DNA of 64,000 bases, from assembly GCA_965222605.1 (NCBI GenBank), contig OZ244960.1, positions 5,805,280 to 5,869,279 on the forward strand. The letters are read 5' to 3'. The DNA is from Candidatus Latescibacterota bacterium. Lineage in GTDB: Bacteria > Latescibacterota > UBA2968. Both the position numbers and the translations under genes were made by a program. Every line of letters starts with the position of its first letter. Within the stretch, counting starts at the first letter, position 1. Shown piece after piece: positions 29,538 to 46,442 of the stretch. The notes below the pieces were generated by a model. That model searched no databases. It was given only the letters and a program-made list of their open reading frames with translations, and was not told the DNA's origin.

Positions 29538-29557
29538 GCCATTATTGGGAGCAGACC

Positions 29558-30634
29558 ATGAAAACATACCGCGCAGCACTGATTGGATGCAGTCGGATGG
29601 GAGCATTTATCGACAATGAGGTGGACAACACGCTGGCGTATTCCCATGCAGCGGGATACGAGGCATGTGATCGAACGGATTTGGTCGCGTGTTCGGATCT
29701 GCGCGAAGATGTGATGGCGCAGGCGGGCGAGCGATATGGGGTTCCAAAATCGCGGCAGTACACGGATTACCGGGAACTTATCAATACGGAAGAGCCAGAT
29801 ATTGTGAGCGTGGCCACGCAGCCAGAGCAGCGCGCAGAAATTGTGGTGTATGCTGCCGAGCATGGGGCAAAGGCGATTTATGCGGAGAAGGCGATGGCGG
29901 CTTCTATGGCGGATGCCGATGCGATGGTCGATGCGTGTGAGCGCAATGGTGTGTTTTTCAATCTGGGGACCAATCGGCGATGGGATCGAGGGTATGACAG
30001 TATGAAAGCGGTGATTGACAGCGGGCGTATTGGGCAATTGCGGTCGCTGATTATTCATCAGACGAGTTCTCTTTTCAATGGTGCGAGTCACAGTTTTGAT
30101 CTGTTGATGCGCCTCAATAGCGACCATCCCGCATTGTGGGTGCAGGCGCATTTATCACAGGGGGCGGATGAGATTGAGGGGAATATTTTGAAGGCGGATC
30201 CGGTGGGGCATGGGATTATCCAGTTTGAAAATGGCGTGACGGCTTATGCCCTCAATTCCGGACGCGGTTTGGAGGTTGAAGCTGTGGGCGATGCGGGGGT
30301 TGTGACGAGTTTGCAAAATGGCGCGGGGTGGCAGGTGCGCGAGGTGGTTGGGCACGATCACAGGGGACGGAATGTGCTGGGGTTTGGGGATTTTCCAGAG
30401 GTGGAGCCGACGAGTTCTACGGTACATTTGATTGAAGACCTGGCACACGCGCTGGATACGGGCGAACCGACGCGGTGCGGTGTGCGGTTGGCACATGCCA
30501 ATCAGGAATTGATTTTTGCTTTTGTCGAATCGCACCAGCGAGGGGGCGAGCGGGTGCATCTGCCGTTGAAAGACTGTCCCTATCGCATGGATCGCGGTTT
30601 TGCACCCAGGCAACCGAAGTTTGAACGCGAATAA
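29558..30634 (+). CDS. Gfo/Idh/MocA-family oxidoreductase
   Basis: Start MKTYRAALIGCSRMG at 29558 (track N-terminal extension overlaps previous gene); AEKAMA motif. Confidence 0.85.
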   Translation: MKTYRAALIGCSRMGAFIDNEVDNTLAYSHAAGYEACDRTDLVACSDLREDVMAQAGERYGVPKSRQYTDYRELINTEEPDIVSVATQPEQRAEIVVYAAEHGAKAIYAEKAMAASMADADAMVDACERNGVFFNLGTNRRWDRGYDSMKAVIDSGRIGQLRSLIIHQTSSLFNGASHSFDLLMRLNSDHPALWVQAHLSQGADEIEGNILKADPVGHGIIQFENGVTAYALNSGRGLEVEAVGDAGVVTSLQNGAGWQVREVVGHDHRGRNVLGFGDFPEVEPTSSTVHLIEDLAHALDTGEPTRCGVRLAHANQELIFAFVESHQRGGERVHLPLKDCPYRMDRGFAPRQPKFERE

Positions 30635-30645
30635 AGGAGGTTATT

Positions 30646-31662
30646 GTGGAATATCGCGAGTTTGGACAGACGGGTTTGAAGGTTTCGGCAATCGGTTTTG
30701 GATGCTGGGAATTGGGCGGGGGGTATGGGTCTATTGATGACGCTGAGGTCGTTGCTGCGGTCAATCGCGCCATCGATTTGGGGATCAATTGTTTTGATAC
30801 GGCTCAGGGATATGGCAGTGGTACGTCTGAGCGGTTGCTTGCACGGGCATTGGGACCGAGGCGTAAAGATGTGATTTTGGTCACAAAGTTTGGTATTGGC
30901 TATAAACACGGCAGGGACAGCAGCAAAGAGATGGTCCACCGGGCGATTGAGCAAAGTTTGGAGATGCTGAATACGGATTACGTCGATGTGTATCTGGTGC
31001 ATTGGCCCGACCGCGATACGCCTTTTGAAGAGACCATGGGTGCTTTGGAAGAAATCGTCCAGGCCGGGAAGACGCGGTTTGTGGGGCTGTCGAATTTTAC
31101 GCCTCCAGAAATTGCGCGGTGTATGGATGCGCGTCACGTGGATGTGTTGCAATACGGCTGTAATTTGTTCGATCGCCGCCATGTGAAATGGACGTTTCCA
31201 TACGCGGAAGCAAATAATGTGGGGGTGATGACGTACGGTTCTCTGGCTTATGGCTTGCTCGCTGGCGCGTTTACAGAAGATACGGTTTTTGAAGATAATG
31301 ATTGGCGGAGAAGAGGCGGTAGCAATACGACTTTGCGCCTGTTTGATCCGGGTATATTCCAGCGCAATGTTCGGGCGGTGAATGAGTTGAAGAAAATCGC
31401 CGCAGGACTGGGCAAAAATCTGCCGCATATGGCGCTGAATTGGGTGTTGTCTCACCAGGCTGTGAGCACGGCACTGGTGGGTGCGCGAAAGCCGGAAGAG
31501 GTTGAAGACAATATGGGTGCTCTGGGGTGGACATTGGGTGAGGATACAAAGCGGGCAATTGATAGGGTTTTTGCCAAATACGAGATTGATACTGCGCCCA
31601 ATAAGTGGGGCGAAACTGATGCGAGGTGGATAGATATTGATCCCGCGGAGTGGACAGGTTGA
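30646..31662 (+). CDS. Aldo/keto reductase
   Basis: GTG start after AGGAGG; motifs DTAQGYGSGTSE, LVHWPD, GLSNF. Confidence 0.9.
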   Translation: MEYREFGQTGLKVSAIGFGCWELGGGYGSIDDAEVVAAVNRAIDLGINCFDTAQGYGSGTSERLLARALGPRRKDVILVTKFGIGYKHGRDSSKEMVHRAIEQSLEMLNTDYVDVYLVHWPDRDTPFEETMGALEEIVQAGKTRFVGLSNFTPPEIARCMDARHVDVLQYGCNLFDRRHVKWTFPYAEANNVGVMTYGSLAYGLLAGAFTEDTVFEDNDWRRRGGSNTTLRLFDPGIFQRNVRAVNELKKIAAGLGKNLPHMALNWVLSHQAVSTALVGARKPEEVEDNMGALGWTLGEDTKRAIDRVFAKYEIDTAPNKWGETDARWIDIDPAEWTG

Positions 31663-31669
31663 GGAGGAT

Positions 31670-32617
31670 ATGATGGATAACGTACGCGTTGGTGTAATTG
31701 GATGTGGTGGCCGGGGCAGGGGACACATCCGAATCTTGAATGAATTTGAAGATGTGCATCTCGCAGCGGTTTGCGATCCGGTTGTGGAGATCCGCGAGTC
31801 CGTGTGTGATGAGTATGAGATCGAAGGACAATACGGCGATGTTTCCGCGTTGCTCGAAGGCGAGGCTCTCGACGCTGTTTTTGTCGCGCCTCCTGCACAC
31901 TTAAATGCCACGCTTGCATTGCCGTGTCTGGAGGCTGGCGTAAATACCTTTTTGGAGAAACCACCGGGTTTGAGTCTGAAAGAAACCAAAGCGTTAAAAG
32001 CTGCATCTGAAGAAACGGATGCGAAAGCCATGGTGGGATGGAATCGGCGATTTCATCCGATTATTGTCGAGGCGCGCAATCTGGTGCTGGATCGCGGTCC
32101 CGTGACGCAATTGGTGGGGGAGTTCCACAAGAGTATCACGGAGTTGGGCAATTCGGGCAAATTTGCCGAGGTACTGATGGATTGTATGCTTTTTGAAACG
32201 CCGATTCACGCCATTGATACCATCCGCTTTTTGGCAGGTGCTGATGTTTCTGAGGTACACAGTGTGGTGCAGCGGTCTATGTCCGGCTATCGGGATGTAC
32301 ACGCGGCTCTCGTCGCGTTTGAAAATGGCGTTGTCGCGCAACTTATTCACAATTATACGACCAATGCCAGGCTGGAGCGTTATGAGATCCACGGGCACGA
32401 GATTTCGGCTTATATGGAGGGTGTGTCGCGCGGAGAGGTTTTTTGCGATGGTGAGAAGATGGCGTTGAGCGGGAATGGGTCGGGAACAGATGAACAGAAC
32501 CGATTTTTCATCGATTGCGTCAAAGAAGATCGCCCAGTCGCGCTTCCCGCGGCAAATTTGGATGAGGCGATTAAAACGATGGAATTGGCCGAGGCGATTA
32601 TGGCGGGGACGCGATAA
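31670..32617 (+). CDS. Gfo/Idh/MocA-family oxidoreductase
   Basis: Start MMDNVRVGVIGCGGRG after GAGGAGG; LEKPP motif. Confidence 0.85.
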   Translation: MMDNVRVGVIGCGGRGRGHIRILNEFEDVHLAAVCDPVVEIRESVCDEYEIEGQYGDVSALLEGEALDAVFVAPPAHLNATLALPCLEAGVNTFLEKPPGLSLKETKALKAASEETDAKAMVGWNRRFHPIIVEARNLVLDRGPVTQLVGEFHKSITELGNSGKFAEVLMDCMLFETPIHAIDTIRFLAGADVSEVHSVVQRSMSGYRDVHAALVAFENGVVAQLIHNYTTNARLERYEIHGHEISAYMEGVSRGEVFCDGEKMALSGNGSGTDEQNRFFIDCVKEDRPVALPAANLDEAIKTMELAEAIMAGTR

Positions 32618-32633
32618 AACCGGCTTCTTTCTA

Positions 32634-32662
32634 TTGACAATATTTTCCGAATCCCATACTTT
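32634..32662 (+). promoter_or_regulatory. Sigma-70-type promoter for tRNA-Pro
   Basis: TTGACA, 17 nt, TACTTT, ending 11 nt before the tRNA 5' end. Confidence 0.5.
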
Positions 32663-32673
32663 TAAATCAGAAA

Positions 32674-32750
32674 CGAGGTGTGGCTCAGTCCGGTAGAGCA
32701 CCTGCTTTGGGAGCAGGGGGCCGGGGGTTCAAATCCCTCCACCTCGACCA
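32674..32750 (+). tRNA. tRNA-Pro (anticodon UGG), CCA encoded
   Basis: Manual fold: acceptor CGAGGTG/CACCTCG, anticodon stem CCTGC/GCAGG with loop TTTGGGA, T-loop GGTTCAAATCC. Confidence 0.9.
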
Positions 32751-32756
32751 ATAAAC

Positions 32757-32795
32757 AAGGGGTTGTGAGTTTTTGCTCGCAACCCCTTTTGTTTT
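32757..32795 (+). terminator. Rho-independent terminator after tRNA-Pro
   Basis: AAGGGGTTGTGAG-loop-CTCGCAACCCCTT (one G-U) followed by TTTTGTTTT. Confidence 0.8.
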
Positions 32796-33012
32796 GAGGT
32801 GTAGTGGAACCGCTATAAAGGCTAATGAACGGGGCAGGACATCGCCCCGTTTTACACCGCTTGACATTGGGCATCAACGTGGTATTTTCTCACACAGAGA
32901 TAGTGTCAAATGTTGTGGATGGCGTCGCGCGCAGCATTGAATTAAAGCGTGAACGGGCCTGGACCAGTTGTAATCCGTCCCCAATGCAAGCGCGTGATAA
33001 TAAGGGTTTTTT

Positions 33013-36000
33013 ATGCTCAAATCACTTGACCGCATGGGTACCTGGCGGACTTATTCTCTGGATAGCGGCCTTGCCGGGCTGCGCGTTGAACATATCGCCG
33101 AGGACAACGAGGGGTGTATCTGGTTCGCCACCTGGGACAACGGTGTTAGTCGCTTCGACGGGGACGAGTTCCGGAATTTTACCAAACAGGACGGCCTTGT
33201 TAATGATCATATTTATTTTGTTTCACAAGACAGTCAGAATCGATTGTGGTTCGGTACAGAAAAAGGCGTCTGCTGGTACGACGGGGTGGGTTTCCATTAT
33301 TTGAAGGGCGATGGGATCGCAGGCCGATCCGTGCAATCTATCTACGAAGATCGTCAGAGGCGTATATGGTTCGGTGGCACGAGTACCCTGGGGTATTACG
33401 ATGGTACTGTGTTTCACGACATGATTCCGCTCTACCTCCAGCACTACGAGCAGCCTCCTTCTCATCAGTGGGCCATGTGTTGGGGTATTACTCAGGATCC
33501 GCAAGGACACCTGTGGTTTGGCTTTGACCGCCTCATCCGCTTTGATGGTGAATTCTTCCACCGCTATGAAGAGAAAGACGGTTTTCCCTACGAAGGGACC
33601 GCCTATGTCGTGGGCCAGGACCATACCGGCAAGGTGTGGATTGGTCGGTTCGGAAATCGAGATGAACTCTGGTGCTATGCCGATGGTGCCTTCCAATCTG
33701 TTCAGGTAAATTTGGGAGGCTGGCTACGCAAAATTCAGTGTGACCGTGAAGGGCGAATGTGGTTCTGCACCTCGGAAGGGGTATTGTATCAGGACAGTGA
33801 CGGATTCAGCAGGTTTCCCCTTGCCGATGGCTTGTCCCATCCCGCAGTCAAAGCCGTGTTTCAGGATCGCGATCATCAGTATTGGTTCGCCACCTGGAGC
33901 GGCGTTGGACTTTACGATGCTCATAGTATCAGCGTTTTTGACCTCGGTAAGGCTTTTCCCAAAGACAAAGAGCCGAGCGAAATCTCGCAGATCGTACAAG
34001 ATCGGCAAGGTGATATATGGATCGGGTGTGTGTCACCCCTTCTTACTGACCTGCCCCAAAGCGTCGCCCGCTTTGATGGCGAGCACTTTACATTTGTAGG
34101 CTCCGAGCAAGGCTTTGATATCAACAACTGTTTCTCTATGTACGAGGACCACGAGGGGTATCTGTGGTTTGGCGGCCTCAACGGCCTGTTCCGCTACGAT
34201 GGGCAGGAAATAAAAAAAATAAAAATAGCTGCGGGTTCAGGCGACAGGAGTATCAGTACAATTACCCAGGACGCGCAAGGTCAATTCCTTTTCGGCTATT
34301 GGGGAAAGGGCACCTATAAAACTAAAATCGGATTCAAAAAAGAAGAGTTTTCGACCAGCCCATTAGAGATCATTTACCAGCGGGGCGAGGCGTTCCAAAC
34401 CATTTTTGTGGAGGATGAAAAGAAAGATATTTTAGACCGCATTGGCACTGTGATTGCCGGGCGCAACAGCGAGATCTATTTTCATTTGGCCTGCCACAAT
34501 TTCTCAGTTGGCAACAGGGGCTTCGCTCGCTGGCATCCCGAAGATGGCCTTAAATTTTATGGAATTGAAGATGGTTTGATAGACCCCAAGGTCAACGACC
34601 TGCTATTAGACCGCGCAGGCAACCTGTGGATTGCCACTTTGAGCGGTCTCGTTCGTTTTGATGGCTACACTTTCCACACATTCACGACTGAAGACGGTCT
34701 GCCGAACAACCGCATTCGGTGTCTATTCGAGGATCGGCAAGGACACCTCTGGCTCGGGACAGAAGGCGGTGTAGTTCACTACGATGGTCAGCTTTTTCAG
34801 ACCATCAAGTCACCGCATATAGGATCGGTTTCTCAGATATTCGAAGATCGCGACGGAACGTTCTATTTTGGCACTGCTCTGGGTTCTATAATACGCTATC
34901 GCCAGCGGCAAACTCCGCCCCAGATTCGCCTGATTCAGGTTGTCGCCGATCAGGTCTATGAGAACTTAGACGACATCATCTTGTCCACGGCAGGACAGCA
35001 GGTGATTTTCGAATACAAGGGGATGAGTTTTTCCACACATCCGCGCGACATGCTCTATGTCTATCGCCTGAAGGGATACGACTCCGACTGGCGTCCAGCG
35101 ACCCGAAAGATGCGGGCCTTTTACCGGGGCTTGCCGCCGGGAGACTACACCTTTCAGGTCAGGTCTATAGATCGCGATCTCAATTATTCAGAGATCGCGC
35201 AGGTAAGACTCTCGATAACGGCGGACCCGCGTATCGAAGCATTTACGGACATAATCAACCGTCGAGGAAGCCAGAAGTTTATCGGGCATAGCGAGGCTCT
35301 GCGCGAGTTTCTAATCAATCTTGAAAAAATCGCATCTACCAATATAACTGTGCTGATTATGGGCGAGACAGGTGTGGGCAAGGGACTGGCAGCACGGGTG
35401 CTACACGCGCTGAGTAACCATAGCGATGGGCCTTTTATAGAGGTTAGTTGCGGTGCATTGCCCGAGGCGTTGATCGATAGCGAACTTTTTGGTCACGAGC
35501 AAGGGGCTTTTACCAGCGCTATTTCCCGCAGACTGGGCAGGGTGGAACTGGCGGAGGGTGGCACGCTCTTTTTGGATGAGATCGGCGATATGGCTGTGGA
35601 AACGCAGGTCAAGCTGTTGCGCTTGCTGGAAGAGGGCACGTTTGAGCGCGTTGGGAGCAGCGAGACGCTGACGACAAAGACGCGGATTGTGGCAGCGACG
35701 AATCGCAATCTGGAAGAGATGGTCAGCACAGATGATTTTCGGGAGGATCTCTATTACCGCCTCAATGCCTTTCCGATGTATTTGCCGCCGCTGCGCGAGC
35801 GCAAGGAGGATATACCATACCTTGCCGAGTTTTTCAAGAACCGCATGGCGACACATTTAGATAAGCAAATCGGCCCTTTGACAGTAGAGGTTATAGAAGT
35901 GCTGCAAGCCTACCATTGGCCAGGCAATGTGCGAGAACTGGAGCATACGATAAACCGCGCCGTAATCGTGTGTCAGGATTCTCGAATTGACGTTGGGGAT

Positions 36001-36219
36001 ATCGGCCTCATAAGCAGTAGCTCTCCTGTTTTTACAGACCGAGAAATCGTGCCTTTGGCTGAATATGAACGCGATTACATACTCAAAGTGCTCAAAGCGA
36101 CCAACTATCAGATAAAAGGTGTTCATGGTGCAGCGGCACTGCTGGGACTACACCCTTCGACGCTGTATGGGAAAATGAGAAAACAGGGTATCAAACGCCC
36201 AGGTAAAGATCATATATAA
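33013..36219 (+). CDS. Sigma-54-dependent transcriptional activator with N-terminal two-component-regulator propeller and Y_Y_Y sensor region
   Basis: 1068 aa; repeated W/F-x-G-T/S..G propeller blades, Y_Y_Y segment (YVYRLKGYDSDW...GDYTFQV), AAA+ core GETGVGKG, GAFTSA loop, DEIGDM, R-finger region, C-terminal Fis-type HTH; no signal peptide, TM segment or receiver domain. Confidence 0.9.
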   Translation: MLKSLDRMGTWRTYSLDSGLAGLRVEHIAEDNEGCIWFATWDNGVSRFDGDEFRNFTKQDGLVNDHIYFVSQDSQNRLWFGTEKGVCWYDGVGFHYLKGDGIAGRSVQSIYEDRQRRIWFGGTSTLGYYDGTVFHDMIPLYLQHYEQPPSHQWAMCWGITQDPQGHLWFGFDRLIRFDGEFFHRYEEKDGFPYEGTAYVVGQDHTGKVWIGRFGNRDELWCYADGAFQSVQVNLGGWLRKIQCDREGRMWFCTSEGVLYQDSDGFSRFPLADGLSHPAVKAVFQDRDHQYWFATWSGVGLYDAHSISVFDLGKAFPKDKEPSEISQIVQDRQGDIWIGCVSPLLTDLPQSVARFDGEHFTFVGSEQGFDINNCFSMYEDHEGYLWFGGLNGLFRYDGQEIKKIKIAAGSGDRSISTITQDAQGQFLFGYWGKGTYKTKIGFKKEEFSTSPLEIIYQRGEAFQTIFVEDEKKDILDRIGTVIAGRNSEIYFHLACHNFSVGNRGFARWHPEDGLKFYGIEDGLIDPKVNDLLLDRAGNLWIATLSGLVRFDGYTFHTFTTEDGLPNNRIRCLFEDRQGHLWLGTEGGVVHYDGQLFQTIKSPHIGSVSQIFEDRDGTFYFGTALGSIIRYRQRQTPPQIRLIQVVADQVYENLDDIILSTAGQQVIFEYKGMSFSTHPRDMLYVYRLKGYDSDWRPATRKMRAFYRGLPPGDYTFQVRSIDRDLNYSEIAQVRLSITADPRIEAFTDIINRRGSQKFIGHSEALREFLINLEKIASTNITVLIMGETGVGKGLAARVLHALSNHSDGPFIEVSCGALPEALIDSELFGHEQGAFTSAISRRLGRVELAEGGTLFLDEIGDMAVETQVKLLRLLEEGTFERVGSSETLTTKTRIVAATNRNLEEMVSTDDFREDLYYRLNAFPMYLPPLRERKEDIPYLAEFFKNRMATHLDKQIGPLTVEVIEVLQAYHWPGNVRELEHTINRAVIVCQDSRIDVGDIGLISSSSPVFTDREIVPLAEYERDYILKVLKATNYQIKGVHGAAALLGLHPSTLYGKMRKQGIKRPGKDHI

Positions 36220-36324
36220 TCTCAAGGATCATATATGATCTTTTGTTGTTAAAATACTATTATTAAGATACTTAAGTAATACATAAGAGTTAGACTGATT
36301 ATTTTTGAGATCATATACGATCTC
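36208..36324. promoter_or_regulatory. Three related palindromes, candidate activator (UAS) sites
   Basis: GATCATATATAATC (36208-36221, overlaps activator stop), perfect palindrome GATCATATATGATC (36227-36240), GAGATCATATACGATCTC (36307-36324); 100-215 bp upstream of the sigma-54 promoter. Confidence 0.45.
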
Positions 36325-36353
36325 GAAAATATAAAATACAGTCTAACTCTTAT
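36283..36353. repeat. Perfect 15-bp inverted repeat bracketing the third palindrome
   Basis: ATAAGAGTTAGACTG (36283-36297) and CAGTCTAACTCTTAT (36339-36353). Confidence 0.8.
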
Positions 36354-36423
36354 TTTTTTATAATAATTCTATCCTGATTAAAAATAACATCTTACGAGTA
36401 TAGTTATTTGGGTCCATTCACAG

Positions 36424-36439
36424 TGGCACACATATTGCA
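36424..36439 (+). promoter_or_regulatory. Sigma-54 (-24/-12) promoter
   Basis: TGGCAC-acata-TTGCA, an exact match to TGGCAC-N5-TTGCW, 65 nt upstream of the ATG at 36504 in an AT-rich intergenic region. Confidence 0.75.
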
Positions 36440-36503
36440 TTATATCTATGTGTTTAATGCCATAAAGGAGAAGATTTAGACTTCAAAGAAAGGAAGGTAG
36501 AGT

Positions 36504-37346
36504 ATGAAACATTTTTTGGTATTTGTGGTCATTGCAAGTTGCTTGTGGTTATCACATCCGGCGGCGCATGCCGAGTCAGATAGGGCATTTTTGAAGAAGA
36601 CCATTAAGGAAAACTTGGAGGGCGCGAGTTCGTCGGAAATCATTTTTGCCAGGTACGGGCGGCGCACCATCACGTTGAAACCCCTCGCGACCAGCCAGTA
36701 TGAAATGCGCCTGGCACTCTGGACTTTGATGGGCGAGCCGGTTGAACTTTATGAATGCCTCATGCCGCACTTGGGGAGCCTGATCTTTGGAGCGAACGAC
36801 GGTTACGCCAATAGAGTTGAAATTGTCAGCGTCGGTGATAAAAACGAGACTGACATATCATTCTACGGCGATAGCAAAGTGTACGTCAGCCAGGACGTGT
36901 TGGACAAAATCGATTACGTGGACTTTAGCTTTTCGATCGTGACCTATGACCTTTTTGAATTGCCGGACGAGTTCTATTCGAAAGACAATAGCATGCGTTT
37001 TGGTACTTTTAAAGCGTATATCCATTTGAAGAACCCTGGTGTTTTGGCTTCACCCGGCAAATGGGGCTGGGACACGCCAGGAAGTCCTGAATGGGAAAAA
37101 TTTCTGTCGAAGTATCAATTTCCTTTGGATGAAGGTAAATACAAGTTGCCGGAAGACCATTACATGGACGAAAAGCAGGCTAAGGAGGCATTTCGCCGCA
37201 TGCGCTGGCGTTACCACAAAAAACAGGACTTATTCGTTAAAAACTGGTTCGATATTCATCATTTGCGCGTGAATCCGGACCGTATCCTGGACCTCATCCG
37301 CAAACACAGTCCTGAAGCCTACGCCGAGATCATGGAAAAAGAATAA
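36504..37346 (+). CDS. Secreted protein of unknown function (first gene behind the sigma-54 promoter)
   Basis: 280 aa; signal peptide MKHFLVFVVIASCLWLSHPAAHA; GGAAGG RBS; no recognisable domain. Confidence 0.6.
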   Translation: MKHFLVFVVIASCLWLSHPAAHAESDRAFLKKTIKENLEGASSSEIIFARYGRRTITLKPLATSQYEMRLALWTLMGEPVELYECLMPHLGSLIFGANDGYANRVEIVSVGDKNETDISFYGDSKVYVSQDVLDKIDYVDFSFSIVTYDLFELPDEFYSKDNSMRFGTFKAYIHLKNPGVLASPGKWGWDTPGSPEWEKFLSKYQFPLDEGKYKLPEDHYMDEKQAKEAFRRMRWRYHKKQDLFVKNWFDIHHLRVNPDRILDLIRKHSPEAYAEIMEKE

Positions 37347-37532
37347 AGCAAGTGAGGTGGAATATGAAACGTTTTTGGTTGTGCTTGAGGTGGATTGATG
37401 ATTTGCATTTTTCTACCTGGCTTGTGCAACAGAAAGGCGGTTTACTTATGAGAGGTCAAAGCATAAGTAAAGCAAGTTATCAGTACAAAATAAGACGTGC
37501 CTGTTTTTAAGACTACAAGAAAGGGGTTCAGT

Positions 37533-38303
37533 ATGTGGCGCATGTTTGTCGTCTTGGCCGTTGTGGTGAGTTGCTGGACGGTGTATTCTGTGTATTCCGA
37601 ACCGAGTTTTCCAATGCCTGAGATGGTGATGATTCCGTCGGGCAGTTTTCAGATGGGCTGTGTGTCGGGTAGGCGCTGCTCGGACGCTGAGAAACCTGTG
37701 CATGAAGTGATGATAGACTCGTTTGCCCTGTCGAAGTATGAGGTGACCTTTGAGGAGTATGATGCATTCACCGATGCGACGGGACGCGAGCGGGCAGACG
37801 ATGAAGGTTGGGGGCGTGGTCGGCGTCCGGTGATCAATGTTTCGTGGTTTGATGCGATGGCCTACACGCAGTGGCTGTCGTCACAGACGGGCAAGACCTA
37901 TCGTTTGCCGAGCGAGGCGGAGTGGGAGTATGCAGCGCGCGCGGGAACTGAGACGATGTTTAGCTGGGGGAATGATTCTGGTTACAACCGCGCCAATTGC
38001 AATGGCTGTGGCAGTCGGTGGGATAAAAAACAGACGGCACCAGTGGGATCATTCGAGGCCAATGGCTGGGGCCTTTACGACATGCACGGTAATGTATGGG
38101 AGTGGGTACGAGATTGTCGGAACGAGAGTTATAGGGGCGCACCGACAGATGGTTCTGCATGGATTGGAATTTGCTCTGAGCGCGTGTTGCGTGGTGGTTC
38201 GTGGTACTTCAGCCCGTGGGTCTTGCGGTCGGCGTATCGCGACTGGTACCCCTCCGGCTATCGGGACGACGTCATCGGTTTTCGAGTTGCCCGGTCTTTT
38301 TAG
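37533..38303 (+). CDS. Secreted FGE-sulfatase-fold (C-type-lectin-fold) protein, non-catalytic; DGR-target-like copy 1
   Basis: Start MWRMFVVLAVVVSCWTV (signal); MVMIPSGSFQMG, RPVINVSW, YRLPSEAEWEYAARAG, GLYDMHGNVWEW, RGGSW...GFRVARSF; no Cys pair after GGSW. Confidence 0.85.
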   Translation: MWRMFVVLAVVVSCWTVYSVYSEPSFPMPEMVMIPSGSFQMGCVSGRRCSDAEKPVHEVMIDSFALSKYEVTFEEYDAFTDATGRERADDEGWGRGRRPVINVSWFDAMAYTQWLSSQTGKTYRLPSEAEWEYAARAGTETMFSWGNDSGYNRANCNGCGSRWDKKQTAPVGSFEANGWGLYDMHGNVWEWVRDCRNESYRGAPTDGSAWIGICSERVLRGGSWYFSPWVLRSAYRDWYPSGYRDDVIGFRVARSF

Positions 38304-38326
38304 CTCCTGATTCTTTACATCTTTAC
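38277..38326 (+). repeat. Conserved 3' block, copy 1 (last 8 codons, stop, 23 nt non-coding)
   Basis: GGTTTTCGAGTTGCCCGGTCTTTTTAGCTCCTGATTCTTTACATCTTTAC; 49/50 identical to copy 2. Confidence 0.9.
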
Positions 38327-38426
38327 TTCATTTGTGGGGCTGGGGACTGGCGGGGGTTTTACGATTTTTTTAGCGACCACTATGATTGCACTTGAGTCGG
38401 TGAACAAGTATCTAAAGGAGGCATCT

Positions 38427-39163
38427 ATGTGGAACCATATTATGTTGACCATTTGTTCGGTGTTTGTGTTGACAGGTCCGGCATCGACTGGAGACATGAC
38501 CCGTGACCCGGACAAGGACTTCAATAAGCTAAGCACCGCAGGAAACCAACGCCCTCAAGGGATCTGGTCGAACGGAACGACCATGTGGGTGGTGGACTCC
38601 TATGACCAGAAAATTTATGCCTACAACCTGAGGACCAAAGCCCGTGACTCGAACAGGATGATAGCTGGGACCGCGAGAATCGTCCTGTGATGAATGTGAG
38701 CTGGGAAGATGCCCAGTCTTATGTTCGCTGGTTGTCTGGCAAGACGGGAAAACCCTATCGTTTATTGAGTGAATCGGAATGGGAGTATGTGGCGCGTGCA
38801 GGTACAGAGACGGCGTATAGCTGGGGGGATCATATTGGTGAAAACCGTGCCAATTGTGATGGTTGCGGCAGTCAGTGGGATGGTAAGCAGACGGCGCCAG
38901 TGGGATCATTCGCAGCCAATGGCTGGGGCCTTTACGACATGCACGGTAATGTAAGGGAGTGGGTGGAAGACTGCTATCATGGCAGCTATGCGGGCGCACC
39001 TACTGATGGAAGTGCACGGGAGTCTACGGAGGGGTGCTGGCGCGTGTTTCGTGGTGGTTCGTGGGACCTCGAACCGAGGAATTTGCGTTCGGCGTATCGC
39101 AGCAGAGGCACCACCGATGTTCGGTACTACAGCATCGGTTTTCGAGTTGCCCGGTCTTTTTAA
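38427..39163 (+). pseudogene. Two-frame chimera: signal peptide plus one WSNGTTMWV..KIYAY blade (38427-38690) joined out of frame to the C-terminal 60 percent of an FGE-fold gene (38648-39163); DGR-target-like copy 2
   Basis: AAGGAGG RBS before ATG 38427; FGE homology (DDSWDRENRPVMNVSW) starts about 38651 in the +1 frame; stop of frame 1 overlaps GTG/ATG at 38687-38692. Confidence 0.5.
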
Positions 39164-39186
39164 CTCCTGATTCTTTACATCTTTAC
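39137..39186 (+). repeat. Conserved 3' block, copy 2
   Basis: GGTTTTCGAGTTGCCCGGTCTTTTTAACTCCTGATTCTTTACATCTTTAC. Confidence 0.9.
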
Positions 39187-39195
39187 CTCTTTTGT

Positions 39196-39243
39196 GGGGG
39201 AGGGTGGGGGGTGGGGGCTTGGGGGTTGGTTTTAGACGGGGGG
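39196..39243 (+). repeat. G-tract cluster (potential G-quadruplex) downstream of copy 2
   Basis: G-runs of 5, 3, 6, 5, 5 and 6 within 48 nt; a shorter version sits at 38336-38356 after copy 1 and GGGGG at 39834-39838 after copy 3. Confidence 0.7.
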
Positions 39244-39343
39244 TTTTACGATTTTTTTTCGAGGGAGGGTTTACGTGGTATGTTCGAAGAATTTTCCCCA
39301 TTGAACAATCCTGTTATAGGATAGGATATCAGGAGTTAGGCTT

Positions 39344-39802
39344 TTGAATGACCAGTCAAATGCTCGGGCACGTCAAACTGGACCGGCATTAGAGGCACAT
39401 TACCAGTTCATTCTGTGGCTGGTGCCCACCCTGGAGCGATTTCCCCGCAATCAGTGGGATGCAGAGAAGACAGCTCCAGGGGGCTCGTTTAGTGCCAACA
39501 GATGGGGTCTCCACGACATGCACGGTAATGTGGCAGAGTGGGTGCAAGATTGTTGGAACTGGGATTACAAGGGGGCACCTGCAGACGGTTCTGCGTGGGA
39601 GTCTGGGGACTGTTCTGAGCGCGTGTTGCGTGGTGGTTCGTGGATAAGCGAACCCTATTCTGATTTCAGTCTTGCTATCTGCTCGGCATGTCGGGCCAGC
39701 ATACTCCTCAAATCTCGCCAAAGAAGGATTTTCGGTCATATAGTTGGAGGTGAAATTTTCCGAAGTAGCACCGTCGGTTTTCGAGTTGTCCGGTCTTTTT
39801 AG
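39344..39802 (+). CDS. Chimeric ORF: Avd/four-helix-bundle-like N-terminal 37 codons fused in frame to the C-terminal part of an FGE-fold domain (copy 3)
   Basis: TTG start after AGGAG; ALEAHYQFILWLVPTLERFPRNQ then WDAEKTAPGGSFSANRWGLHDMHGNVAEWV...RGGSW...GFRVVRSF; may be a non-functional fusion. Confidence 0.5.
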   Translation: MNDQSNARARQTGPALEAHYQFILWLVPTLERFPRNQWDAEKTAPGGSFSANRWGLHDMHGNVAEWVQDCWNWDYKGAPADGSAWESGDCSERVLRGGSWISEPYSDFSLAICSACRASILLKSRQRRIFGHIVGGEIFRSSTVGFRVVRSF

Positions 39803-39825
39803 ATCCTGATTCTTTATTTTTTCCC
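39776..39825 (+). repeat. Conserved 3' block, copy 3 (diverged)
   Basis: GGTTTTCGAGTTGTCCGGTCTTTTTAGATCCTGATTCTTTATTTTTTCCC. Confidence 0.8.
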
Positions 39826-39853
39826 TCTTGTGTGGGGGAGGAAGGAGAAAACC

Positions 39854-41509
39854 ATGCGTAAACGAATCACGACTGTTGTTATCATCGTCACCACGCTTTT
39901 GATCTATCCGCTGTCTCAGGTTCCTGGGAGTAGTCACGATACATGTGATACGCCGCCTAACAGGGCCCCTATGGCGAAGGGCACCATTGATCCTGTGACG
40001 CTGGGTGTTAATCCTGATACTATAGATGTATCGGACAAATTCAAGGATGATGACGGAGATACGCTGACATACAAGGTATTAGTGAGTGCAGACGCCATTG
40101 TAAAGGCGCATATGGATAGCAGTAAAGTGATAATCGGTCGGGACAGTGTGTTCCGTGCGACAATTACCGTGGTGGCTACAGACCCAGACAGTTTGAAGGC
40201 AACGCAGACGATAGCAGTGAAGGTGAATCAAGCTCCTTTGGCGGTGGACTCGATTGCTTCCGTGATGCTGGGTGTTGATCCCGACACTGTGGATGTATCG
40301 GACAAATTTAGCGATGCGGACGGAGATACACTGACATACAAGGCGACGGTGAGTGATACAGCTATTGCAACGGTGAGTATGGATGATGGCAAGGTGACCA
40401 TCAAGCCTGGGACGAAGGAGGGCAATACGATGGTGACGGTGACAGCGGAAGATCGGTGGGGATTGCAAGCAAAACAATACATTGCTGTGGTACAAGTGGA
40501 TCCGATAATCAAAGTCATTGAACACATAATCATTGTGTTTGTAGTAACTGGAATTGGAGCTTTGCTTTTAAAATTCGCCTTTAAATTTAATTTTAACTTT
40601 GATACTCGTATAGGTGAAAAAGGTAAGGTTCAGGAAAATAAAGATGCGCTTAGGAGGCTCCAGTATATCGTCGGAGTTCTGGGTATCGGACTGCCGCTTC
40701 TCCTGCTCATTGCATGTCTGTACGATTACGGGTCTAATACTATGATGGTAGAAGATTTCAGTAAGTGTGTCAAAAATTCAATCAGTGCGTATTACGATAG
40801 CGCGAGTCGAGACGTATTCGTTGGGATTCTATGCGTAATCGGTGCATTTCTGTTTGCCTATAAAGGCTATGACACTCGGGATGACCAGGCGAGCCATCTC
40901 GCGGGATTGTCGGCGTTCGGAGTTGCACTCTTCCCCGCGACAAGCAACAACAGAGCGGTAGAGGCGATGCATTACTTGTCTGCCATATTGCTCTTTTTGA
41001 CGCTGGCCTATATTTCGCGGTATCGTTTTACAAAATCGAAATGTGAGTCTATACGACCAGGAACGCTCAAGGCGAAACGGAACCAGGTGTATAATTGGTG
41101 TGCTTATATGATGATATTTGGCCTGCTTGCTATCGGTGCATTTAAGTGCTTGAAATTGCCCGCGATGAACGACTACAAGATGATGTCCGCCGCCGTGCTA
41201 CTTTTGGTACTGACCTATTTTTTAATAAATGCCTATTTTTCATGGCATTCTACAGAAAAGGCTAAACAGAATAAGAAAAGCGCACATGTGATAACATTTG
41301 GCCTCTTCGCTATTGGAGTTGGGGTTTGGACACAATATTATCTGACTTCGTTTCCCTTTATGTTTGTGACCGAAACCGTGCTGTTTTTAGCGTTTGGCAT
41401 TTCGTGGTTGGTCAAGAGTGACACATTGATATTATTACGCGATAAAGATGAAAATGATGTCGATGATGATCAAAATGGTGCCGATGACGATGAAAATGAT
41501 AGTGCGTAG
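39854..41509 (+). CDS. Secreted/membrane protein: two tandem Ig-like (cadherin/Big-like) domains plus a C-terminal polytopic membrane domain and acidic tail
   Basis: Start MRKRITTVVIIVTTLLIYPLS; two ~95-aa repeats each with D.DGDTLTYK; then at least 6 hydrophobic segments; tail DKDENDVDDDQNGADDDENDSA. Confidence 0.65.
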   Translation: MRKRITTVVIIVTTLLIYPLSQVPGSSHDTCDTPPNRAPMAKGTIDPVTLGVNPDTIDVSDKFKDDDGDTLTYKVLVSADAIVKAHMDSSKVIIGRDSVFRATITVVATDPDSLKATQTIAVKVNQAPLAVDSIASVMLGVDPDTVDVSDKFSDADGDTLTYKATVSDTAIATVSMDDGKVTIKPGTKEGNTMVTVTAEDRWGLQAKQYIAVVQVDPIIKVIEHIIIVFVVTGIGALLLKFAFKFNFNFDTRIGEKGKVQENKDALRRLQYIVGVLGIGLPLLLLIACLYDYGSNTMMVEDFSKCVKNSISAYYDSASRDVFVGILCVIGAFLFAYKGYDTRDDQASHLAGLSAFGVALFPATSNNRAVEAMHYLSAILLFLTLAYISRYRFTKSKCESIRPGTLKAKRNQVYNWCAYMMIFGLLAIGAFKCLKLPAMNDYKMMSAAVLLLVLTYFLINAYFSWHSTEKAKQNKKSAHVITFGLFAIGVGVWTQYYLTSFPFMFVTETVLFLAFGISWLVKSDTLILLRDKDENDVDDDQNGADDDENDSA

Positions 41510-42043
41510 GAGTAATTGTGCAGAAACCGAGCCTGATAGAATGTCTTGCCATTAAACGAAAGAGAAAAATGTAGTTAGAGTTTCGGGATAGCACTCATCA
41601 TCAAGAACCCAAAATCTCCAATGTCTTTTTTCGCTGGCGAATACAGGTTTGTCCTCTAAGCACAGCCACCAATTCAAATAATCCCGGCCCAAACCCAACG
41701 CCGCAAAGTGCAAGGCGCGTTAATGCGTTTGGAACCCAACAGGTCGGGTTCACCAGCCAATGTGTACGTGTGGCGTCGCACGCAACGATAGTAGGCGAAA
41801 ATTGATAAAAGAAGAGACAGCATGCGAAGAGTGATCACAAGTATTTTTGTTCTATTTTTACTGGGATTCTCCACAGTTGCATTCGCCCAACTGCCACCGG
41901 AGGTCATGGTAGATAAACATCTGATGCAGGCAGAACAGCTACTTGAGAAAAAAGACTATATAGTTGCGTTCAACATGATGGACAAAATCATCGCGCTGCA
42001 AAAAGAGCACAGTCTCACATTGCCAGACGAGTTCCACTTTAAG

Positions 42044-42052
42044 TATACACAG
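42044..42052. repeat. Target-site duplication, left copy
   Basis: TATACACAG immediately before the left inverted repeat. Confidence 0.85.
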
Positions 42053-43126
42053 ACGTGATGTGTGACTTTAAATAGCGAAAAAGAGGTTCCTCGGCTATCT
42101 TGAATTGTTCACTAAACAAGAAGCCATTCAACGAAAGGAACCTCCAATGTATAATTTAGACCTTTTTGTCATTGCAATCTACTGTTTTATTGAAGACGAA
42201 CTTTATTCGGCTTTCTGTAAGGTACATGGCAAGCCCCGTCAAGCAGGCTTTGAGCCCGGTCTAAGTGATGCCGAATGTCTCACCATAGAAATCGTGGGTC
42301 ACTTTCTGGGATATTCAAGCCAGAAAAAACTTTATGAGCAGATGAAAGAACACTTCATAGATTGGTTTCCCACTTTGAAAGACCGTCCTGCCTTTGTGCG
42401 TCAATGTGCCAATTTGTGGGTTGTCAAGATGTGGATGCAACAGCGGATTGTTGCCAGCTTGGAAGGGCATCAGGCATCCTGCCAGATCATAGATACGCTA
42501 CCCTTACCGATCTGTAAACTGGCAAGGCGACATTATCGCAAGATATTTACAAGAGAGCCAGTCTTTGAGTTCCCACCCCCTTCAAAAGGCTTCTGTGCTG
42601 CCAAAAGCGAAGCGTATTTTGGTTTTAAGGGTGGCCTGAGGATCACGGATTATGGCCTTATTGTCCACGCGCCGATCTTGAAAGCGTATGGACACGACAA
42701 GAACTGCCGAGAGGCACTCCTTGATGGCACAATGGGAGATACAACCGTCTTGGCCGATGCGGCCTTTATGGATTTGGACTGGCAAAAAAGGTGCTTTGAT
42801 ACCTACCGAATACGCATAAAGACACCCTTAAAGTCCAATATGAAAGACAATCCTGAACGCACCCCTTTCATTTTGCCCAAAGCGAAGAAAGCCACAAGGC
42901 GATTAGTCGGAGCGGTGTACAACTTCGCAGAAGTTCAACCGTTTATGCACAATTGACAGAACGCTTGCATATTGCCCGCATGAAAGTGCGAGATGCATGG
43001 CATTTATTGAACTTGTGGCATACCAAAATCTTAACCCATACTATGTGTGTCTTTCTCAATATCATCAATTATCGAGACCCTCTTGATTTTGATGGCCTCG
43101 TGCAATTTTGAAGTCACACATCGCGT
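42053..43126 (+). mobile_element. IS982-family insertion sequence (1074 bp)
   Basis: Terminal inverted repeats ACGTGATGTGTGACTTTAAA (42053-42072) and TTTGAAGTCACACATCGCGT (43107-43126), 18/20 complementary; 9-bp direct repeats outside. Confidence 0.85.
42147..43111 (+). pseudogene. IS982-family DDE transposase with a frameshift near 42900-42950
   Basis: MYNLDLFVIAIYCFIEDE...LSDAE...IIDTLPLPIC...GFCAAKSEAYFGFKG...LADAAF in frame 1 (stop 42956); conserved C-terminus STVYAQLTERLHIARMKVRDAW...continues in another frame to a stop inside the right IR. Confidence 0.75.
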
Positions 43127-43135
43127 TATACACAG
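43127..43135. repeat. Target-site duplication, right copy
   Basis: TATACACAG immediately after the right inverted repeat. Confidence 0.85.
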
Positions 43136-43267
43136 ATTGCCTTTTCAACAGGCTCGATGCAGACCGCTGTGAACGGCAGGGAGCAGGAATGATGACAGAC
43201 GAGACGGCGGAGCTTGGCCCGTAGTGCCTTTATATGGGAACCGTAACTATCTGGGCTAAGATGTGCG

Positions 43268-43513
43268 TTATTTGGCGCGTTGACGCCATCCTCTTATTCT
43301 TTCTCTCTGTTGTCTGACAAGTGTGACGACTTCTTGCGTAGAGATGTCTGCCTCGATTGAAGGAACATCCAGTGGTGACCCGGAGAGGCGTTCTGGCACC
43401 AGGGCATAAGTCCTGCCGTCTTTTCTGCGTATAAGGACCTTACCCATTGATTCGGCTTTGTCGAGTACGCTGGAGAGTCTTTGTCTGGCTTCTGAGTACG
43501 TATATACTTCCAT
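43268..43513 (-). CDS. Phd/YefM-like antitoxin candidate
   Basis: Start MEVYTYSEARQRLSSVLDKAE... (Met17 of track ORF), typical Phd/YefM-type N-terminus; begins 1 nt after the vapC stop. Confidence 0.6.
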   Translation of the reverse strand: MEVYTYSEARQRLSSVLDKAESMGKVLIRRKDGRTYALVPERLSGSPLDVPSIEADISTQEVVTLVRQQRERIRGWRQRAK

Positions 43514-43514
43514 C

Positions 43515-43913
43515 TCATTCCTCCAAATTAACGAGGTTGATACCGAGTGCATCTGCGGCACGTTTAAGTGTTCGATCCAGTGTTAATAAGGGTGCTGCAT
43601 GCCGCAAGGCGCAGTCCAATAAGTACGCGTCGTATGCGTATGCGTTTACCTGAGCCGCGATGGACAGAACATTTGCCATGTCAATGTTCACGTATTGCAG
43701 GGGGATGCTATCGAGAATCTCCAGCCCCCGCTGTGCATCCGCGACGCTGATGCGATGTTGCTTGATCATCGCAGAGAAGGCATTTCCGATTTCCCAGGGA
43801 ATGGAACCGGGACCGATAAGTGTGTGACCCGATGTGGCTGCGATAATCGCGTCTCTTTCAGGTTCAGCTACGATCACCGCAATGATCGCTGACGTATCAA
43901 TTACAATGTTCAT
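43515..43913 (-). CDS. vapC: PIN-domain toxin (VapC family)
   Basis: 132 aa; MNIVIDTSAIIAV (first acidic residue), later YDAYLLD and LTLDRTL. Confidence 0.8.
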   Translation of the reverse strand: MNIVIDTSAIIAVIVAEPERDAIIAATSGHTLIGPGSIPWEIGNAFSAMIKQHRISVADAQRGLEILDSIPLQYVNIDMANVLSIAAQVNAYAYDAYLLDCALRHAAPLLTLDRTLKRAADALGINLVNLEE

Positions 43914-44123
43914 TATGGTCTCCTCAAGACACTATCAATTGTACAATTGTCTGAAGAAATGTCAAGGGATATATACTTCAAAGGTGCCTCGTGCTGAAAG
44001 AAATTGACCAGGAAAAGATAGGTGTAGTATGAAGCGTCTTTGTATCGTGCTTGCAGTCGTTGCAAGTTGTCTATGGGTATGTTTGATCAAAACGGCGTAA
44101 TACCAAAATAGAAGGAAAAACCA

Positions 44124-46442
44124 ATGCGTAAACAGATTCTGTTTCTCTTATCAACACTCGCGCTTTTGATATATCCGCTGTCTCTTTCGGGACAGAATAG
44201 TACGGCAGGTGATCAAGACCTTACCCCGGACTTTGATGGGGATGGTCAGGTTGGCTTCCCTGACTTTTTGGCGTTTGTGGGTCAGTTTGGGGCACGTGAG
44301 GGGGATGGGCGTTATGATGTCAGATATGATCTGGATAGTGATGGCGAAATTGGATTTTCCGATTTTCTGCTCTTTAGTGCCAGCTTTGGCAAAGGGGAGC
44401 CTGCCTCTGGCGGTGATGGTGCAACGATGGTTGCTATTCCGGATGGGAACCTGCGTGCTGCTATTGAGGCTATTCTCAACAAGGTGAGTGGTGCGCCGAT
44501 CACTCAGGGTGAGATGGCGGCCTTGACGCGCCTTGATGCCCGGAATGCGAATATCAAGGACTGGGCCGGGCTTGAGTTTGCGACTAACCTGATAGATCTG
44601 AATCTTGAAGACAACAACCTCTCGGATGTATCTGCGTTGTCTGGCTTGACTCGTCTGGAAGTGCTGAATCTTGGGTCCAACGACCTCTCAGATGTGTCTG
44701 CGTTGTCGGGCTTAACCAACCTGACATTTCTGAATCTTTCTGACAACAGTATCTCGGACCTCACGCCCCTATCGAGTTTGACTAACCTGACAACGCTGGA
44801 TCTTTCCGGCACCGGCGTCAGGGATTTGTCAGCGTTGTCTGGCTTGACCAATCTGGAATCGCTGGATCTTGCTAACAACAGGATCACGGATGTATCTGTA
44901 TCGTCATTGTCAGTTTTGACCAATCTGAGGTCGTTGGAACTTTCCTCCAACTTCATTGGTGATGTATCTGCATTGTCAGTTTTGACCAATCTGAGGTCGT
45001 TGGATCTTTCCTCCAATTTCATCAGGGATGTGTCCGCGCTGTCTGGCTTGGTCAATCTGACGGATCTGGATCTTTCCTTCACGAGCATCAGTGATGTGTC
45101 AGTGCTGTCTGGCTTGATCAATCTGGAATCGCTGGATCTTTCCTTCACCAGTATCAGTGATTTGTCAGTGCTGTCTGGCTTGATCAATCTGGAATCGCTG
45201 GATCTTTCCGGCACCGGTATCAGGGATTTGTCAGCGTTGTCTGGCTTGACTAATCTGACAAGTCTGAAACTTTACAAAACCAGTATCTCAGACCTCGCAC
45301 CTCTGGTCGCAAACACGGGATTGGGCAGTGGAGATGAGATTGATGTGAGAGAAACTCCGTTGAGTGACACATCACGCAAAACGCATATTCTATCCCTTCT
45401 GCGTAGAGGAGTTGAGATTTCTTTTTATGTAAGTATCCCAGATATTAATCTGCACGCTGTTATTGAGGATAGTCTCGGCAAGGCGCAAGGGGCACCAATT
45501 GCGGTAGCTGAAATGGCGGCCTTGACGCGCTTTAGTGCCCGGGATGCGAATATTAGGGACTTAACAGGGCTTGAGTTTGCTGCTAATCTGGTATGGTTAC
45601 ATCTTGGTTCCGGTGTGATTGATCCGTTTTCCAACAGCAACGAGATATCCGACATCTCGCCCCTTTCTGGCTTGACCAACCTGACTTATCTGAATCTTTT
45701 TCTCAACGATGTCTCGAATATCACCCCATTATCAGGCTTGACCCGTCTGGAATGGCTGAATCTTGCCAACAACAGCATCAGTGATGTGTCCGCGCTGTCA
45801 GGCTTGACCCGTCTGGAAGGGCTGAATCTTAACAATATGAACATCACAGATGTGTCAGCACTATCGGGCTTGACCCGTCTGGAATGGTTGCGTCTTACAT
45901 TCAGCGACATTGTTGATGTGTCCGCGCTGTCAGGCTTGACCAACCTGACTTTTCTGTTTCTTGGTTACACCAACATCTCGAATATCACACCATTATCAGG
46001 CATGACCAATCTGGAAGAACTGCGTCTTAACAATAACAACATCAGTGATGTGTCCGCACTCTCAGGCTTGACCCGTCTGAATTACCTGGTGCTTACCCGC
46101 AACAACATCAGTGATGTGTCCGCACTCTCAGGCTTGACCAATCTGGAACAGCTGTGGCTTTACAACAACAGCATCTCGGATCTTGCGCCTCTGGTGGCAA
46201 ACACGGGATTGGGTACTGGAGATGTGGTTGGTGTGCAGAATAATCCGTTGAGTGCCATATCGCTCAACACGCATATTCCAGCCCTTCAAGACAGAGGAGT
46301 TGAGGTGCGTTTTGGCGCGTTGAAGCCCGCGGTGGAGAAGGAGGAATCCTCAGGGCTTGAGGAGTGGGAGGCAGGAGATTATATTTTTCGCAGGCAGGTG
46401 GAGAAGGGAAAGGACGCGCTCAAATCCGCGACAGAGCAGTAA
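44124..46442 (+). CDS. Secreted dockerin-like plus double LRR-module protein
   Basis: 772 aa; signal MRKQILFLLSTLALLIYPLS; two EF-hand/dockerin-like DxDGDGxVGFxDF repeats; two LRR modules, each with the cap LRAAIE...EMAALTRL and tail ...THI..L..RGVE. Confidence 0.8.
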   Translation: MRKQILFLLSTLALLIYPLSLSGQNSTAGDQDLTPDFDGDGQVGFPDFLAFVGQFGAREGDGRYDVRYDLDSDGEIGFSDFLLFSASFGKGEPASGGDGATMVAIPDGNLRAAIEAILNKVSGAPITQGEMAALTRLDARNANIKDWAGLEFATNLIDLNLEDNNLSDVSALSGLTRLEVLNLGSNDLSDVSALSGLTNLTFLNLSDNSISDLTPLSSLTNLTTLDLSGTGVRDLSALSGLTNLESLDLANNRITDVSVSSLSVLTNLRSLELSSNFIGDVSALSVLTNLRSLDLSSNFIRDVSALSGLVNLTDLDLSFTSISDVSVLSGLINLESLDLSFTSISDLSVLSGLINLESLDLSGTGIRDLSALSGLTNLTSLKLYKTSISDLAPLVANTGLGSGDEIDVRETPLSDTSRKTHILSLLRRGVEISFYVSIPDINLHAVIEDSLGKAQGAPIAVAEMAALTRFSARDANIRDLTGLEFAANLVWLHLGSGVIDPFSNSNEISDISPLSGLTNLTYLNLFLNDVSNITPLSGLTRLEWLNLANNSISDVSALSGLTRLEGLNLNNMNITDVSALSGLTRLEWLRLTFSDIVDVSALSGLTNLTFLFLGYTNISNITPLSGMTNLEELRLNNNNISDVSALSGLTRLNYLVLTRNNISDVSALSGLTNLEQLWLYNNSISDLAPLVANTGLGTGDVVGVQNNPLSAISLNTHIPALQDRGVEVRFGALKPAVEKEESSGLEEWEAGDYIFRRQVEKGKDALKSATEQ

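Follow-up and report, generated by a model that had tools for sequence, protein, structure and literature searches.

An avd start joined to the tail of an FGE-fold target gene: a probable relic of a DGR in a Latescibacterota genome

Introduction

How does a single short reading frame come to begin like Avd, the accessory variability determinant of DGRs, and to end like one of their target genes? The question is raised by an open reading frame at positions 39344..39802 (+ strand) of a 64,000-nucleotide stretch of DNA from a Candidatus Latescibacterota bacterium, the whole of which was analysed and is here called the window. The frame encodes 152 amino acids from a TTG start and is present as the initial annotation had described it, namely as an Avd-like N-terminus fused in frame to the end of an FGE-fold gene, which had been explained as the scar of a deletion. 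Three FGE-sulfatase-domain sequences are clustered in the window, and since the frame is the third of them, its FGE part is called copy 3 below. Judged by its sequence, the frame consists of avd codons 1–37 joined to the tail of a lectin-fold (FGE) DGR target gene.

Over 38924–42079 the window agrees in every base with an independently assembled Logan contig of 3,156 nt (run ERR13602196), which takes in the tail of copy 2, the truncated avd (avd'), the junction and copy 3 as well as the next gene; with 100% identity, this contig is uninformative on VR variation between assemblies. No second Avd–FGE fusion was found among 5.8 billion proteins. A promoter and terminator scan of 37300–40000 gave matches no better than those in shuffled sequences.

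The Avd segment

The avd leader with its ribosome-binding site is located within 39164..39343 (+), 3' of the downstream element described below, with an AGGAG motif (39331–39335) 8 nt 5' of the TTG. The same TTG start is used in relatives, both for P0004 of locus L003 and for the Avd of locus L047. The following avd' (39344..39454, +) contains codons 1–37 for the accessory variability determinant of the DGR and corresponds to roughly the N-terminal third of a protein of around 127 amino acids. In the profile search that the initial annotation had proposed for the N-terminus, the peptide alone aligns through residues 16–37, in register, with positions 4–25 of the 104 positions of NCBIfam DivGenRetAVD (NF033474), at an E-value of 0.015, far below the family cut-off; by itself, this alignment is suggestive only. 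The homologues decide the assignment and uphold the claim of an Avd N-terminus: residues 1–37 of the intact, 127-residue Avd of L047 match 39344–39454 with 75.7% identity (E=1.6e-15, tblastn against the whole window), and there is no other match to this Avd in the 64 kb. Neither the complete frame nor its N-terminal peptide matches Pfam bAvd (PF22296), the family that a repaired full-length relative from locus L005 matches at E=3.4e-22. The Avd homology stops at codon 37 and does not cover the full family profile.

The surroundings of avd' are also those of an avd gene on one side. Window positions 38661–39454, where copy 2 is followed by its downstream element and then by avd', are collinear with L047 9319–10120, which runs from the FGE target to avd. 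From this collinearity it follows that copy 2 is the target that once lay directly upstream of avd, and that the frame begins at the authentic avd start. The VR-bearing copy 2 is present upstream, while the RT is absent downstream.

A profile made from the peptide led to 27 homologous proteins with the consensus ...TGPALEAHYRFxLWLVPTLERFPRSQKFLLGDRIQxTALDVLExLIEATYTR..., all of them short. A family of short proteins, with no intact Avd of this type, was considered and rejected: the matches are fragments of 38–84 amino acids with unrelated tails, and a six-frame reading of the loci, together with a genome scan, showed that over 40 loci have a full-length avd. The short matches are frameshifted, stop-interrupted or deleted avd copies. 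In the six-frame reading, avd is frameshifted in L006 and L010, and the rest of the gene is deleted in L003, L004 and L008. In L005 the rest of avd is present, broken by a single in-frame TAG (2971–2973), with no RT or TR 3' of avd on the 5.4-kb contig. The genome scan, in which an alignment of the Avd homologues was run against 185,579 species genomes, yielded 51 loci with avd, mostly full-length; a scan of a viral contig collection with the Avd alignment yielded no relatives.

The FGE segment and its variable region

Residues 32–108 of the frame match positions 154–230 of the 255 positions of Pfam FGE-sulfatase (E=8.4e-21), and DNA homology of copy 3 to copies 1 and 2 extends over 39447–39643 and 39774–39841, in agreement with the earlier reading of the C-terminal part as the 3' part of an FGE-fold gene. 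The domain is incomplete, with profile positions 154–230 against 2–255 in copy 1. The FGE middle part (39455..39654, +; WDAEKTAPGGSF...RGGSW-ISEP) forms the C-terminal subdomain up to the first VR codons and is 84.7% identical to L005 2341–2548, 82.6% identical to L062 17385–17539 and 73–75% identical to copies 1 and 2. At the distal end, repeat D5 and the alignments place the 3' end of the VR, the conserved GFRV(A/V)RSF tail and the native FGE stop at 39761..39802 (+). The FGE-cassette downstream element follows at 39803..39845 (+) and runs into the start of the next gene (repeats D5 and D7; 88.9% identity to L062 17683–17754). This next gene (39830–41509) encodes a Big_9 membrane protein.

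The C-terminal variable loops had been described as longer than those of copies 1 and 2. Copy 3 is longer by 60 nt (20 codons), but the difference is not a loop extension: about 106 nt of non-homologous filler (39655..39760, +; boundaries good to about 10 nt) replace the middle 46 nt or so of the VR core. When the 83-nt core (family pattern TGG NNC NNC ... GGN TTY CG) is aligned with the family TR, only about its first 14 nt and its last 20–25 nt can be matched. The VR ends and the conserved downstream element are thus present in copy 3, with the middle of the core replaced; the core is not alignable and the adenine-site signature of a VR is not seen. On these alignments, the filler is a second lesion of copy 3. 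It aligns with copies 1 and 2, on both strands, no better than shuffled sequences do, and it has no significant match in loci L001–L010 or elsewhere in the window. Two candidate sources were rejected: an inverted 5' piece of an FGE gene (a 13–16-nt inverted match, repeat I1), the score of which lies within the shuffle range, and the C-terminus of Avd (IFGHIVGGEI resembling ...GRxxGxW), there being no Avd profile match past residue 37. The filler opens with nine successive NNY codons (TAT TCT GAT TTC AGT CTT GCT ATC TGC), and the frame is kept.

Copies 1 and 2 and the missing core

Copy 1 (37497..38303, +) is a complete gene of 268 codons, matching Pfam FGE-sulfatase from profile position 2 to 255 (E=9.9e-61); its VR core, a former DGR variable region at the 3' end of the gene, occupies 38202–38284 (+). 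Copy 2 (38657..39163, +) is 5'-truncated (profile positions 93–255, E=2.8e-38), with its VR core at 39062–39144 (+), and is located directly upstream of avd'. The downstream element common to the FGE cassettes (39164..39343, +) is marked by direct repeats D3, D5, D7 and D10 and is homologous to L003 9815–10000 and L004 171–354. Each FGE copy is followed, past its stop, by the same conserved stretch of about 40–60 nt (repeats D5, D7 and D10).

Both upstream copies fit the 83-nt TR core of the family. Of the 24 sites that are adenine in the TR, 18 differ between the two copies, against 8 of the 59 other sites (Fisher p=1.3e-7), and these adenine-site differences imply that a DGR of this family once diversified both genes. 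The cognate TR is predicted to read approximately TGGAACAACAAACCGAGGAAYTTGCGNTCGGCGAATCGCAACAG...AACAACAACATCGGTTTTCG. The VRs of copies 1 and 2 are orphans, without TR or RT in 64 kb, and are either frozen or served by a DGR elsewhere in the genome.

The loss of RT, TR and the 3' part of avd, another element of the initial annotation, holds for the entire 64-kb window. The sole YxDD motif in six frames sits in an unrelated ORF, and tblastn with six intact family RTs returned matches derived from the TR/VR only; no further VR-like copy was found in the 64 kb, and no 3' part of avd is present. A second scar is seen next to copy 2: an ORF of 118 amino acids (38334..38690), which is the 5' end of a repeat-protein gene and is 84% identical to L003 11215–11498, adjoins the truncated copy in another frame.

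The junction

The alignments confirm that the switch from Avd to FGE takes place at codon 38 (TGG, 39455). The cross-over lies inside an 8-nt microhomology, GCAGTCAG (39447..39454, +), which with one later substitution reads GCAATCAG in the window and is found as GCAGTCAG in related avd genes, in FGE copy 2, in L003 and in L062. On the avd side, the relatives read ...TTTCCCCGCAGTCAG/AAATT, on the FGE side ...TGCGGCAGTCAG/TGGGAT, and the window has ...TTTCCCCGCAATCAGTGGGAT. More fully, related avd genes read ...GAGCG(A/T/G)TTTCC(C/A)CGCAGTCAG/AA(A/G)TT... at the junction site, the FGE genes (copy 2, L003 and L062) read ...TG(C/T)GGCAGTCAG/TGGGAT..., and the window sequence across the junction is ...GAGCGATTTCCCCGCAATCAGTGGGAT.... 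Over all fetched loci, the commonest 9-mer at the avd site is CGCAG(C/T)CAG, with 20 occurrences, and the commonest at the matching FGE site is GGCAG(C/T)CAG, with 9.

Codons 35–37 of avd specify Arg-Ser-Gln (CGC AGT CAG), the corresponding FGE codons Gly-Ser-Gln (GGC AGT CAG). Since the Ser-Gln codons are in identical phase at both sites, an in-frame fusion is automatic and needs no selection; the in-frame state is then a by-product and no sign of function. The two microhomology sites are between 2,534 and 5,097 nt apart in L014, L018, L031, L041 and L045, and with a spacing of 2.5–5.1 kb in intact loci one deletion could create such a fusion. An 8-nt microhomology, flanked on its avd side and on its FGE side as in the relatives, is what the initial annotation's deletion scar should look like, and at the level of sequence this reading of the junction is well supported.

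Related elements: layout and decay

In the intact family, the order of genes is FGE target (with VR), avd, RT and TR, often with an additional FGE target downstream. Twenty-six of the 51 genome loci contain an uninterrupted RT frame with DGR motifs (AAPFRDR/APFRDR and YxDD), which begins at the avd stop, and 26 contain a repeat of about 120 nt of the upstream VR (the TR) just 3' of the RT, at about 11.0–11.7 kb of the locus. The TR in these relatives is AAC-rich and the VR differs from it at adenines only. In 7 of the 26 TR-bearing loci, a same-strand FGE copy comes after the TR. The order avd-TR-RT, which had been assumed for the lost core, is thus incorrect for this family; the relatives show avd-RT-TR, the layout that Wu et al. 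2018 (PMC5758913) class as architecture B2.

The DGR lineage has decayed in about half of the 51 loci and in all the metagenomic fragments. Independent decay is common, and loci L005, L006, L008, L010, L047 and L055–L061 have frameshifts, an in-frame stop, avd–RT deletions and RT–downstream deletions. In the unrelated loci L047 (around 10644–10660) and L010 (around 10648–10662), the RT is cut after the same codon (...AVCEPIF), with different DNA downstream, and in L008 it is cut (around 10420–10445) three codons past ...AVCEPIF; this site of the RT may be a breakpoint hot spot. Throughout L011–L061 the Avd proteins are 51–89% identical, at least 64% in most loci. The lineage is found in MAGs named Latescibacterota, Vicinamibacterales, Binatia, Alpha- and Gammaproteobacteria, Spirochaetia, Nitrospirales, Thermoanaerobaculia, Bryobacterales and Myxococcales, a distribution which suggests that the Avd/RT lineage has spread between phyla. 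Locus L053 contains about ten FGE VR copies within 20 kb.

The initial annotation had looked to related genomes for an intact core at the syntenic position. Intact cores exist, in the 26 loci just described, but the syntenic relatives are coreless. Loci L003 and L004 are syntenic with the window, their neighbouring sigma-54 activator gene being 82% identical at the nucleotide level. In them a large FGE gene precedes an avd' whose similarity to Avd ends at about codon 51, the remainder being unrelated. Beyond avd' come an fn3 gene, the repeat-protein gene and further FGE genes; no RT lies within 10 kb. L062 and L063 represent a strain-level relative, with a sigma-54 activator protein that is 98% identical. 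Their flanks match the 11.6 kb of window positions 24874–36488 with 96.7% identity, and homology returns from 41779. What they hold in between is an LRR gene and a full-length gene for a 919-residue PKD/CarboxypepD_reg/FGE protein, without avd. No pre-deletion allele was found among the relatives examined. The next sigma-54 activator homologue (P0030, 79% identity) was rejected as a syntenic relative, since its contexts, in which WD40 genes occur, are paralogous loci; among named sequences, the activator has its closest homologues in Gemmatimonadota MAGs.

Window positions 36488–41779 (5.3 kb), compared with L062 13476–18823, form a strain-variable island of wholly different content. On the 3' side of the island are a DDE transposase ORF (42105–42956, weak Pfam matches), a Phd/YefM-PIN toxin–antitoxin pair (43268–43913, − strand) and a gene for a 772-residue leucine-rich-repeat protein (44124–46442). 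These neighbours, at 42105–46442, are mobile-element and eukaryote-like-protein genes.

Origin of the fusion

The reading that we favour, and hold to be very probable, is that the frame is a non-functional DGR relic, formed by an illegitimate join at GCAGTCAG with loss of the intervening DNA. The ancestral element would have started with an FGE-fold target whose VR lay at its 3' end, continued with a short downstream element, avd, RT and TR and, as is often the case, had more same-strand FGE targets after these. Illegitimate recombination, via the 8-nt microhomology GCAGTCAG, would have joined avd codons 35–37 to the Gly-Ser-Gln codons in the middle of a downstream FGE target, and all DNA between the two sites would have been lost. 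The product retains the ribosome-binding site and TTG start of avd, 37 Avd residues and half an FGE domain, without a signal peptide or the N-terminal subdomain, and its VR core was disrupted later. We infer that the joining event was a deletion in cis, and the resulting frame would be a pseudogene without function, although the filler in the VR does not interrupt it, something mildly surprising in a pseudogene.

How much this deletion took away is a separate matter. Against a simple deletion, the FGE part is 82.6% identical to the L062 gene, as opposed to 96.7% for the flanks, which indicates that the island has been reshuffled or replaced, beyond mere deletion. To expect precisely this fusion from one deletion is too simple, given the second VR lesion of copy 3 and the 5'-truncated fusion at copy 2. 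The claim that the deletion removed the DGR core survives in part: the scar is there and the layout of the family allows it, but removal by the same event cannot be demonstrated, since the syntenic relatives are coreless too, with avd' cut at about codon 51 in L003 and L004 and no avd in L062 and L063. That the same event removed RT and TR is possible, with slightly more to be said for doubt than for belief.

A late deletion in an already coreless cassette is an equally simple explanation as the loss of RT and TR in one event. In such a stepwise decay, RT and TR would have gone earlier, and the microhomology deletion would have taken the remaining codons of avd', some unrelated genes and the next FGE gene's 5' half. 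Cassettes without a core occur often in the family, and the syntenic L003 and L004 are themselves coreless, with an avd' that is longer (to about codon 51) than that of the window and, 2.8 kb downstream of it, an FGE gene the middle of which is 80.7% identical to copy 3. The gene order of the window is, however, scrambled with respect to L003, with the repeat-protein fragment and copy 1, which resembles L003-FGE220, upstream of avd', so that an L003-like ancestor is no simple fit; the loss of the core in L003 may, besides, be independent. We regard stepwise decay as a tenable, if doubtful, account. Rather unlikely is the replacement of a segment, in which copy 1, the repeat-protein fragment, copy 2 along with the downstream element, and avd' would have arrived as one block, whether from another strain or from a different part of the genome, and recombined into a resident large FGE gene like the 919-residue gene of L062, replacing its 5' 2.4 kb at the GCAGTCAG site. 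The 96.7% identical flanks in L062 and L063 do enclose a full-length PKD/CarboxypepD_reg/FGE gene; in L062 it reads TGCGGCAGTCAG/TGGGAT at the equivalent site, and its 3' part (82.6%) and downstream element (88.9%) are among the closest matches to copy 3. An identity of 82.6% within flanks of 96.7% means, on the other hand, that the L062 gene is not the direct parent, its C-terminal region and that of copy 3 are wholly different, and two crossovers would be required, one of them illegitimate.

A good Shine-Dalgarno sequence, the family-typical TTG start and an uninterrupted frame that crosses the VR filler and reaches the native stop would also suit a working gene, which would use the avd signals to make a small cytoplasmic protein with an FGE lectin-fold tail, its enlarged loops serving as a new binding module. 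The in-frame join is already explained by the identical codons at the microhomology; of the FGE profile only positions 154–230 of 255 are left, with no signal peptide, against 2–255 in intact paralogues, the 37 Avd residues are less than one third of the roughly 127 in the family, and the fusion has no second example in the protein search. A working gene is, in our estimate, extremely unlikely. A chimeric join between repeated FGE cassettes in the assembly has a still smaller, practically negligible probability: the three FGE copies are 74–81% identical and contain near-identical 48-nt stretches, which can mislead assemblers, but the Logan contig agrees with the window through the junction, and the junction is an 8-nt microhomology between unrelated genes, outside any long repeat. 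In a more far-reaching proposal, the truncations would represent a recurrent, sequence-directed switching-off or reshuffling of DGR cassettes (at the GCAGYCAG microhomology built into avd and its own target, and at the ...AVCEPIF cut of the RT), which would freeze useful VRs and generate new FGE chimeras, with the Avd(1–37)–FGE frame as an expressed product; this we consider highly improbable.

Significance and comparison with known systems

A literature search on DGRs of sponge symbionts and on Avd–target fusion scars found no account of either. The frame at 39344–39802 is a remnant of a well-known type of element and a case of ordinary genome erosion. Read as a relic of this kind, it offers a base-level example of the death of a DGR, in which microhomology between accessory and target genes allows a deletion of 2.5–5 kb, including RT and TR if the cassette is intact; a chimeric ORF stays behind, together with variable regions that are orphaned and frozen. 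It also calls for caution in annotation: the frame would receive the name FGE-sulfatase family protein, and although they have no template or RT nearby, copies 1 and 2 resemble live DGR targets. That one Avd/RT lineage is common to MAGs of many phyla, with about half of its loci decayed, may merit separate study.

Among described systems, the B2 DGRs with targets of the FGE-sulfatase/C-type-lectin fold (PMC5758913) are the most directly comparable, as the relatives of the locus share their exact layout and the adenine-only differences between VR and TR. The order avd-TR-RT, assumed in the initial annotation, is that of the Bordetella phage type. Compared with B2 DGRs, the window keeps target genes, VRs and the start of avd, while it is without RT and TR and has only 37 codons of avd; by its gene content it would be a dead remnant and no DGR. 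The Avd of phage BPP-1 (bAvd; PF22296, NF033474) offers a second comparison. The motif Y..F..W.VP..ERFPR.Q of the frame is in register with the start of the family profile, but the frame carries about the first third of the protein only. Avd is a basic, RT-binding pentameric barrel (PMC5758913), a structure that presumably cannot form from a fragment of 37 residues. With the TvpA-like targets, copy 3 shares the domain family and the position of the VR at the C-terminus (PMC5758913), but it lacks 60% of the domain, all on the N-terminal side, and the core of its VR has been replaced, whereas copies 1 and 2 are TvpA-like genes.
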